In this document: in pieces, positions 8,187-8,287 of the stretch
Position numbering within the stretch: position 1 is the stretch's first letter
How the letters are laid out: each line of letters begins with the position of its first letter
Origin: Escherichia phage vB_Eco_Jura
Sequence record: LR999871
Strand: one strand, 5' to 3'
Length of the DNA stretch: 64,000 bases
Position numbers and translations under genes: made by a program
The notes under the pieces: generated by a model
Seen by the model: only the letters and a program-made list of their open reading frames with translations
The model's database searches: none
What the model was told of the DNA's origin: nothing

Positions 8187-8287
8187 GAAAGAACTCTTAT
8201 TTTGGTTACCGCAAAAGAAGTGAAAAATGTTGTGGAAAACTACTTCCCAATTAGGTTCGAATCCTAAACCAGAGTAAGAGTTCTTTC
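8187..8287 (+). other. hairpin B: 21-bp stem enclosing a 59-nt insert with a T-arm-like hairpin
   Basis: GAAAGAACTCTTATTTTGGTT (8187-8207) pairs with AACCAGAGTAAGAGTTCTTTC (8267-8287) with two G-U pairs as RNA. Insert holds GAAGT/ACTTC (8217-8221 / 8242-8246) and TTAGG-TTCGAAT-CCTAA (8251-8267). Confidence 0.5.

Follow-up and report, generated by a model that had tools for sequence, protein, structure and literature searches.

A putative structured RNA with a tRNA-like T-arm inside a long closing stem, conserved in the tRNA regions of enterobacterial phages

The 64,000-nucleotide (nt) stretch of Escherichia phage vB_Eco_Jura analysed in this work (record LR999871, hereafter the window) contains, at positions 8181-8293 of the plus strand, what is very probably the gene for a genuine, selected structured non-coding RNA of ~113 nt. 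The folded RNA is modelled as a transfer RNA (tRNA) look-alike that is without a D-arm and whose 'acceptor' helix is extended to 23-28 base pairs (bp) and has no free end. A first-pass annotation of the window had proposed a structured RNA at 8187-8287 that no protein-coding or canonical tRNA feature explains, and all of the tests performed agree with that proposal. As to function, the reading that is somewhat favoured is that the element gives rise to a trans-acting tRNA-mimic RNA, released at its stem. Over the 1.6 kb around the element, identity to coliphage N4 and its near relatives in the genus Enquatrovirus is 99-99.7%. Long open reading frames are absent from the 1.6-kb stretch that holds it (7243-8879, between gp47 and gp48), and the annotation of the original N4 record is empty across this stretch, the element falling within an unannotated gap between tRNA-Thr and tRNA-Pro.

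The element is closed by a stem, P1, of 27 uninterrupted pairs (G-U pairs allowed) with 59 nt between its arms (Table 1). The paired arms recognised in the first pass, 8187-8207 and 8267-8287, are present but were understated, as the pairing runs outward to 27 bp. When the whole window was scanned for uninterrupted stems with loops of up to 100 nt, P1 ranked first, the runner-up being a 19-bp stem at 7957-8038, and the longest stems in ten dinucleotide shuffles of the window reached 14-16 bp. Folded as plus-strand RNA, 8181-8293 gave -44.8 kcal/mol (z = -8.75), and none of 200 shuffles was as good. For the 101 nt of 8187-8287 the values were -37.1 kcal/mol (z = -6.8) on the plus strand and -27.4 kcal/mol (z = -3.6) on the minus strand.

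When 50,697 phage records were searched for homologues by sensitive blastn, with the element as query, 30 were found to carry it. All 15 N4-type genomes hold a copy at 97-100% identity, phage G7C and Shigella phage Moonfish at ~82%, and Klebsiella phages Pylas and KpCHEMY26 together with Salmonella phages FSL SP-058 and SP-076 (subfamily Humphriesvirinae) at 84-88%. Unexpectedly, two T4-like Yersinia myoviruses, TG1 and phiR1-RT (Tegunavirus), also carry the element at 83-87% identity. The 11 distinct homologues belong to the lineages Enquatrovirus, G7C/Moonfish, Pylasvirus/Ithacavirus and T4-like Tegunavirus, and fold z-scores in four lineages ranged from -5 to -8.8. Every homologue is unannotated, lies in the tRNA region of its phage and is oriented like the tRNAs. 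The immediate flanks of the TG1 and phiR1-RT copies are protein genes and a promoter-like sequence, not tRNAs, and in the Pylas/Ithaca group the element is the last unit ahead of the terminator.

Pattern scans of IMG/VR, JGI metagenomes and GTDB genomes returned the same phages plus two uncultivated Humphriesvirinae-like contigs (L014 and L018). The remaining pattern matches (L021-L056 and L059-L130) were judged by eye to be chance or coding, and gave no match at E <= 1 to a covariance model of the family, R1, with which all known copies scored above 100 bits and nothing else above 33 bits. No paralogue was found within the window, where the second-best plus-strand match to R1 was the stem of another module (module A, 18.7 bits), and blastn found no match in 5,426 E. 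coli genomes or 72,556 plasmids. Judged from these sequence comparisons, the family is real, small and limited to lytic phages of Enterobacteriaceae. A co-occurring protein partner was sought among the carrier phages and none was found; TG1 has no neighbouring protein in common with the N4-like phages. No description of the element was found in literature searches on small RNAs of N4 or Schitoviridae, on tRNA-like RNAs of phages and on the N4 transcriptome.

The 11 distinct homologues were placed in an alignment of 111 columns (A1), from which a consensus structure was obtained with RNAalifold and R1 was built. The consensus consists of P1 (24 aligned pairs), a hairpin P2 (GRAGUG/UACUYC) with a 3-bp extension (GUU/AAC), and a T-arm, an arrangement that fits the three-way-junction-like description given in the first pass. 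Standard pairs occupy 97.3% of the cells on this structure, and double-sided changes are seen in 17 pairs, 16 of them within the 24 of P1. The 5-bp inner stem that had been noted at 8217-8221 and 8242-8246 is conserved in all lineages; P2 is paired in 100% of cells and contains one compensatory pair (A-U to G-C, columns 37/64) in four of the 11 sequences, those of G7C/Moonfish and TG1/phiR1-RT. None of 500 column shuffles reached the observed values of pairing and covariation, and when the 3' partners were slid by 1-3 columns, pairing fell to 38-53% and covariation was gone. Covariation across related phages was the test by which the first-pass annotation had proposed to stand or fall, and pairing proved to be conserved through many compensatory changes.

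The pairing is also strand-specific. G-U cells number 28 against five A-C cells, paired cells fall from 97.3% on the plus strand to 91.6% on the minus strand, and R1 scores 119.6 bits on the plus strand and 32.4 on the minus strand, which favours an RNA read in the sense of the tRNAs over a DNA cruciform. Between lineages, the 59-nt core is 83-95% identical and P1 41-78%. In total, 60 of the 111 columns are invariant, including the junction ACCG..AAAG, the bulge AAAAAU, AAACUAC and AAUUAGGUU. Such a pattern, in which the paired arms and the tip vary and the interior is fixed, marks a functional RNA and not a gene in decay. P1 itself ranges from 23 to 28 bp across lineages, and despite its covariation the pairs A9-U103, A12-U100 and G24-C88 are invariant.

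Within the core, the single-stranded junction J1/2 stands in the place of a tRNA D-arm and contains no conserved stem; the D-stem drawn there by ARAGORN at relaxed threshold is unconserved, with column 31 being C, G or U. The P2 stem pairs GAAGUG (8217-8222) with UACUUC (8241-8246), that is, the 5-bp stem GAAGU/ACUUC plus G8222-U8241. Its interior holds the invariant A-rich bulge AAAAAU (8223-8228) and a small stem, GUU (8229-8231) with AAC (8238-8240), capped by a tip loop (8232-8237) of variable length and sequence (CGUA, GUGGAA or GCGAAA), which is the only site of length variation in the element. P2 is the minimum free energy stem in G7C, Pylas and TG1, whereas ViennaRNA applied to N4 alone favours an alternative pairing that a 2-nt insertion in the N4 tip loop allows.

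The hairpin TTAGG-TTCGAAT-CCTAA, likened to a T-arm in the first pass, was confirmed. It carries G53, U54, U55, C56, R57, A58 and C61 (tRNA numbering), and its loop reads UUCGAAU, UUCAACU or UUUGAAU, depending on the lineage. The hairpin directly abuts the P1 3' arm with no spacer, like a tRNA T-arm on its acceptor stem, and A8267 is ambiguous, since it can pair with U8251 as the last of the five T-stem pairs or with U8207 as the innermost pair of P1. The marks of a canonical tRNA T-arm, namely a 5-bp stem ending in G53-C61, a UUCRANY loop and an adjoining terminal helix, were all found. A 7-bp acceptor stem with a free NCCA was not: the 3' strand stays paired and no CCA follows after seven pairs.

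From this architecture and its setting, we infer transcription, stability, processing by RNase III and a decoy function. The element lies on the tRNA strand between an upstream CCA-ended tRNA-like gene and tRNA-Pro, which begins 8 nt past P1; the CCA of the upstream gene is at 8180-8182, and its C8181 and A8182 double as the first bases of P1. The element would be transcribed within the polycistronic transcript of the tRNA operon. In its fold, P1 encloses a three-way junction, with the T-arm stacked on its inner end as in an acceptor/T-arm minihelix and P2 in the place of the anticodon arm. A double-strand-specific host nuclease, most probably RNase III, would cut inside P1 and thereby free the element from the upstream tRNA-like RNA, whose CCA overlaps the base of P1, and from tRNA-Pro. 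Classical RNase III substrates are regular duplexes of more than two helical turns; P1, with 27 pairs here and 23 or more in all lineages, is a regular duplex beyond the roughly two turns (20 bp or more) expected of such a substrate. What remains after cleavage would be a compact, exonuclease-resistant small RNA, the conserved core of which would act in trans by showing a tRNA elbow or T-arm to a host factor common to Enterobacteriaceae, and so serve as a decoy or sponge that titrates or diverts a tRNA-recognising enzyme or nuclease. The spread of the element without a protein gene, together with its protein-gene flanks in TG1, suggests that its RNA is probably self-sufficient and works together with a component of the host, and the apparently independent movement between podoviruses and T4-like myoviruses of enteric bacteria points to a conserved one. 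This component is probably common to E. coli, Shigella, Salmonella, Klebsiella and Yersinia.

Several points weigh against this reading. RNase III cleavage is suggested solely by the length and regularity of P1, and the host factor engaged by the decoy is a postulated one. As the T-arm and the remainder of P2 are without variation, the comparison is neutral on their fold and lends them no covariation support of their own, and the alignment contains no conserved GG to stand in for the D-loop in a tRNA elbow. The family is small and shallow (four or five lineages), so some of the covariation counts reflect few inherited events. Sister modules with equally long stems but no T-arm imply that the role of the stem may be independent of the tRNA-like core. 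Lastly, no N4 transcriptome paper was found in the literature.

Table 1. Features of the element, its operon and related modules in other phages. Coordinates refer to the window unless a locus (L number) is named.
Feature	Position	Strand	Basis and remarks
P1 5' arm (27 nt)	8181-8207	+	Inverted-repeat search, 27-bp stem, compensatory changes
J1/2 single-stranded junction, ACCGCAAAA	8208-8216	+	tRNA D-arm place; ACCG and AAA invariant in 11/11 homologues (columns 27-30, 33-35)
P2 hairpin	8217-8246	+	Alignment, one compensatory pair
J2/3 junction, CCAA	8247-8250	+	tRNA variable-loop position; columns 66-69 invariant except for C/U at column 67
T-arm-like hairpin, UUAGG-UUCGAAU-CCUAA	8251-8267	+	T-arm scan; stem invariant across lineages
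P1 3' arm	8267-8293	+	Inverted-repeat search, 27-bp stem, compensatory changes
Sister long-stem module A	7951-8044	+	~25 bp, no T-arm; begins 2 nt past tRNA-Thr CCA; weak R1 match to the stem only, 18.7 bits
Sister long-stem module D	8381-8464	+	13-14 bp stem closing a three-way junction; begins 2-3 nt past tRNA-Pro CCA
Four tRNAs of the window	Asn 7700, Ser 7780, Thr 7874, Pro 8302	+	ARAGORN and Rfam
Armless tRNA-like gene (context)	8117-8182 (66 nt)	+	Annotated tRNA-Undet in phage AL25; ARAGORN only at 80% threshold
Intrinsic terminator, strong	8825-8854	+	Terminator scan; annotated as terminator in phage AL25; end of the non-coding tRNA/small-RNA operon (7243-8879)
Identical arms around different interiors	L057 (St11Ph5) 1420-1524 and 1695-1790; L006 (SP-076) 1486-1594; L005 1242-1333		First pair also with identical downstream terminator
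Other tRNA-like modules with orphan T-arms, same operons	L006 1240-1325; L005 1242-1333; L018 ~5725-5835; L009 1036-1115; L004 1620-1745	L018: reverse	

The element is one of three long-stem modules in the N4 operon, all of which start 0-3 nt from the CCA end of a tRNA or tRNA-like gene. At their bases, the stems of modules A and D are similar to one another and to the element as it occurs in G7C (AUUAGUG.../AAUUCGUG...). The tRNA operons of related phages hold two to five long-stem modules each, plus several orphan T-arms outside recognised tRNAs; in several of the orphan-T-arm modules the T-arm abuts the 3' strand of a stem that is longer than a normal acceptor stem. Comparison of a phage St11Ph5 module with the SP-076 copy of the element (A2) revealed an identical 22-nt 5' flank and arm and an identical 3' arm and terminator around an unrelated 52-nt St11Ph5 interior that has no T-arm. 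A second St11Ph5 module (A3) has its arms, and not its interior, in common with a Pylas module. Conversely, the core of the element and its inner stem have one outer stem in N4/G7C, another in the Pylas group and a third in TG1. When G7C is compared with phages closely related to it, the element is gained or missing as one discrete block, bounded by the two ends of P1. Shared arms around unlike cargo, and the same core in different stems, indicate that the mobile unit is the ~80-nt cargo and that the long stem is a lineage-specific holder. In the SP-076 record (KC139520.1, L006), tRNA and coding-sequence coordinates appear to be ~1,049 nt off the tRNA positions given by ARAGORN, and one 'hypothetical protein' coding sequence overlaps tRNA annotations.

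These arrangements bear on the main alternative, a cis-acting 'punctuation' of the operon transcript in which P1 is an RNase III site, the T-arm helps to recruit RNase P or other enzymes that separate the flanking tRNAs and mature them, and the excised piece is a by-product. P1 starts within the upstream CCA end and stops just short of tRNA-Pro, and the sister modules likewise follow directly on a tRNA CCA, as such a role would have it; the modules with unrelated cargo in the same outer stem further suggest that the stem may be the functional part. However, the core is far better conserved than the stem and contributes to the 60 invariant columns, the TG1/phiR1-RT copy sits among protein genes and a promoter-like sequence, and the Pylas/Ithaca copy has only the terminator after it. 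A core more conserved than the stem, and surroundings in TG1 that are free of tRNAs, speak against a stem-only reading, and the cis-acting alternative is considered unlikely, though not negligibly so.

The same mobility could instead reflect an element that acts as DNA, that is, a recombination or insertion scaffold (a cassette boundary, a cruciform, or repeats like miniature inverted-repeat transposable elements) in which the T-arm is the target of a SegB-type endonuclease and the RNA fold is incidental. The T4 homing endonuclease SegB recognises GGTTCRANTCC, the DNA of a T-arm, and drives preferential inheritance of the tRNA region (Brok-Volchanskaya et al., PMC2330249). This motif is matched by the N4 (GGTTCGAATCC) and G7C/Pylas (GGTTCAACTCC) copies, and G7C has an HNH homing endonuclease gene ~1 kb upstream of the element. 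A presence/absence boundary at each end of the stem, unrelated cargo between arms that are identical, and the crossing between podovirus and myovirus families are all as expected of a DNA-level element. In contrast, so one-sided an excess of G-U pairs would be incompatible with a hairpin or cruciform of DNA, the model leaves the invariant J1/2, the A-rich bulge and P2 unexplained, and no target-site duplication is visible. In addition, the TG1 copy (GGTTTGAATCC) breaks the SegB motif yet is conserved, its T-loop being UUUGAAU (C56 to U) in both TG1 (L009 1545-1561) and phiR1-RT (L010). The tRNA genes of TG1 and phiR1-RT retain GGTTCRANTCC. A purely DNA-level element is therefore improbable, although such a model can explain the mobility and is compatible with an RNA function. 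Exchange by endonuclease-driven gene conversion, aided by short identical arms, is plausible and would account for the spread of the element, but not for the conservation of the remaining core.

It is very improbable that the element is a new self-cleaving ribozyme with a role in processing the operon transcript, where the cut might fall, for instance, at the foot of P1 beside the upstream CCA. Variable, covarying stems around invariant junction nucleotides are in keeping with a ribozyme, as is a 5' edge that coincides with a required RNA end, the upstream CCA. No Rfam 15 ribozyme model was matched, however, a CCA end bearing a cyclic phosphate is not chargeable, and TG1 has no upstream tRNA to be released. 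To our knowledge, no small ribozyme carries a canonical T-arm. Yet smaller is the probability of a decaying, functionless tRNA pseudogene whose flanks pair by chance. A poor cloverleaf can be drawn over 8199-8276 by ARAGORN at 80% threshold, the Rfam tRNA-Sec model gives 17 bits, and degenerate orphan-T-arm sequences occur in the same operons; but a core of this identity is kept across virus families that are otherwise unlike in this neighbourhood, 16 compensatory pairs maintain the long stem, the length of which is far beyond chance, and the cloverleaf D and anticodon stems are unconserved.

It is scarcely credible that the element is a leader with a micro-open reading frame. The invariant AAAG(G/A)AGUGAAAAAUG does resemble a Shine-Dalgarno sequence followed by a start codon for a 7-16-amino-acid peptide, and the suitably spaced AAAGGAGUGAAAAAUG of G7C and TG1 has the form of a textbook ribosome-binding site. 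An indel of 2 nt directly behind AUGUU, however, gives G7C/Pylas a reading frame other than that of N4/TG1, with MFVNYSPIRFNS, MLWKTTSQLGSNPKPE and MLRKTTP as predicted peptides, the nucleotides are conserved regardless of frame, and the Shine-Dalgarno-like bases are paired in P2. The retron-like RNA suggested in the first pass, for which only the long inverted repeat flanking a structured insert speaks, fails as an msr/msd RNA and is left with next to no probability: no reverse transcriptase is present among the annotated or Pfam-scanned neighbours, no Rfam retron model was matched, and in the T4-like phages the element moves without a protein partner.

The remainder of the operon contains further non-coding features. 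The tRNA-like gene directly upstream of the element has a 7-bp acceptor stem (UCCGGUG/CGCCGGA), an encoded ACCA end, a T-arm (TCTGG-TTCGAGT-CCAGA, matched in the orphan T-arm scan at 8155-8171) and only ~29 nt in place of the D and anticodon arms. It is labelled tRNA-Undet, tRNA-Cys or tRNA-OTHER, depending on the phage, and copies with 88-95% identity are found in Gamaleyaviruses and Klebsiella N4-like phages. Directly upstream of it, a segment of ~60 nt with two small hairpins (8049-8110, plus strand) has copies with 85-95% identity in many otherwise unrelated phages, for example temperate Klebsiella phages, Shigella phage DS8 and Salmonella phage Segz_1, and may be another mobile small-RNA module. 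The 89 non-coding nt at 8479-8567 (plus strand) are 99-100% identical between N4-type phages and Gamaleyaviruses (St11Ph5, PBM-3), with flanks that are unrelated or ~80% identical; near-identity despite diverged flanks suggests another conserved RNA. Upstream of the tRNA cluster, identical 26-nt hairpin sequences at 7432-7457 and 7559-7584, 127 nt apart, were picked up on the minus strand by the terminator scan.

The proteins encoded near the element, according to annotation and a Pfam scan, are SSB, gp46, gp47, gp48, gp49 and vRNAP. gp48 (8880-9251, plus strand) belongs to the Phage_gp49_66 family, and gp49 (9251-9736, plus strand), a short way beyond the operon, contains a domain like Tad2 (Thoeris anti-defence 2; E = 8e-24); a Tad2-like gene is found at the equivalent position in Moonfish. 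The Tad2-like genes show the region to hold accessory counter-defence functions, which is a weak contextual hint in favour of the decoy reading. A bolder extension of the decoy reading would see in the element the first member to be recognised of a class of 'stem-scaffolded' phage small RNA cassettes within tRNA operons, where 50-60-nt cargos in a common holder are swapped between unrelated phages, and at the same time a sealed tRNA-elbow decoy against a tRNA-cleaving or tRNA-modifying defence enzyme, that is, an RNA-only counter-defence beside a Tad2-like gene. This combination is a conjecture to which only a low probability is attached.

N4 is a classic model phage, and its 1.6-kb tRNA region contains several conserved structured RNAs that are annotated in no record and covered by no RNA family. 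For the present element, the support from comparison between phages is unusually clean. At the least, the element merits annotation and an entry in an RNA family database. If it encodes a tRNA mimic by which a host enzyme, or a defence nuclease directed at tRNA, is titrated, an RNA-only tool would be added to the counter-defence repertoire of phages, and 'junk' tRNA-like sequences in phage tRNA clusters might be explained in part. Stems with swappable cargo suggest a general route by which phages package, process and exchange small RNAs.

To place the element among known RNA classes, Rfam 15 was searched with the window, a 3.5-kb slice and a 131-nt slice at gathering thresholds and at E <= 10, and the element reached no threshold, including those of the tRNA-like and retron-like models for which a search had been proposed in the first pass. 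Its best plus-strand matches with the 131-nt slice, both sub-threshold, were the S4 leader (19 bits) and tRNA-Sec (17 bits, gathering 47); YrlA gave 17.3 bits, the rest being miRNA-hairpin models on the long stem. ARAGORN at its default setting found four tRNAs in the window and none at 8181-8293, and the Rfam tRNA model did not match the element even at E <= 10. At 80% threshold, ARAGORN drew a 'tRNA-?(tg)' over 8199-8276 with a 6-nt 'anticodon loop'. Its D-stem (C29-G41, G30-U40, N31-G39) conflicts with the covarying P2 and includes the variable column 31, and the cloverleaf anticodon stem has three of five pairs in N4 and is impossible after the 2-nt deletion in G7C/Pylas. Intron-containing and mitochondrial-type models of ARAGORN yielded only sub-threshold, unconserved models. 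Transfer-messenger RNA was likewise rejected: the ARAGORN search for it was negative, the element has no free CCA end, and its short frame is unconserved.

The element nevertheless shares with tRNAs, including D-armless and armless mitochondrial-type tRNAs, a T-arm set on the terminal helix and a 4-5-nt junction like a variable loop, and it further resembles tRNAs in having a 5-6-bp arm (P2) in the anticodon position and tRNA genes as its surroundings. Unlike a tRNA, it has both ends locked in a 23-28-bp helix that leaves no NCCA free, it has no conserved D-arm, and in place of a 7-nt loop its 'anticodon' hairpin holds 18-20 nt that end in a variable tip. In comparison with the RNase III processing stems that flank 16S and 23S rRNA and with the inter-cistronic sites of phage T7, P1 is again a long helix around a structured RNA in a polycistronic transcript, between units that need to be separated; it differs in enclosing only ~59 nt and in covarying while a few of its pairs are invariant.

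Bacterial Y RNAs (YrlA and Deinococcus Yrn1; 80-130 nt, some of them phage-encoded) combine a long stem formed by the 5' and 3' ends with a tRNA-mimicking module that has a T-arm, and the likeness to the element is one of architecture only. The long stem of YrlA replaces the anticodon stem, whereas that of the element extends the acceptor stem. Homology to Y RNA was rejected, as the YrlA model (RF02553) gave 17.3 bits against a gathering score of 69 (E = 4.7) and covered only 8251-8327, the T-arm and the start of tRNA-Pro. Y RNAs carry a Ro60-binding motif, GNCGAAN0-1G or GGUCCGA, near the 5' end, with a Ro60/Rsr gene within ~4 kb on the same strand (Chen et al., PMC4201824). The motif is absent from all 11 homologues, and no Ro60/Rsr (TROVE) gene was found among the neighbours within 4 kb, the scan for TROVE having been confined to these and not extended to whole genomes.

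The closest precedent in setting is offered by T4 rnaC (species 1 RNA) and rnaD (species 2 RNA), small stable RNAs of the T4 tRNA region that have long been known and whose function is still unknown in the literature. Like the element, they are non-tRNA RNAs (~120-140 nt) that lie among tRNA genes and are co-oriented with them, and rnaC has a canonical T-arm (CCGGG-UUCGAAU-CCCGG) beside a stem formed by its ends. Homology was rejected: R1 gave 12.5 bits on rnaC (E = 1.5), and blastn aligned just 27 nt over the T-arm (E = 1.6). In local alignment the likeness to rnaC is confined to the T-arm and the octamer AACUACUU, and four of 500 shuffles were equally good. A homologue of the rnaC 5' end (87% over 38 nt, unannotated) was observed in TG1 at L009 3041-3078, extending to the edge of the locus examined. 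TG1 carries both an rnaC homologue and the element, which indicates that neither replaces the other. In contrast to the element, rnaC has no 23-28-bp closing stem. The element thus belongs to neither the T4 rnaC/rnaD family nor the Y RNA family, and its novelty lies in the combination of their features with a sealed, much extended acceptor helix.

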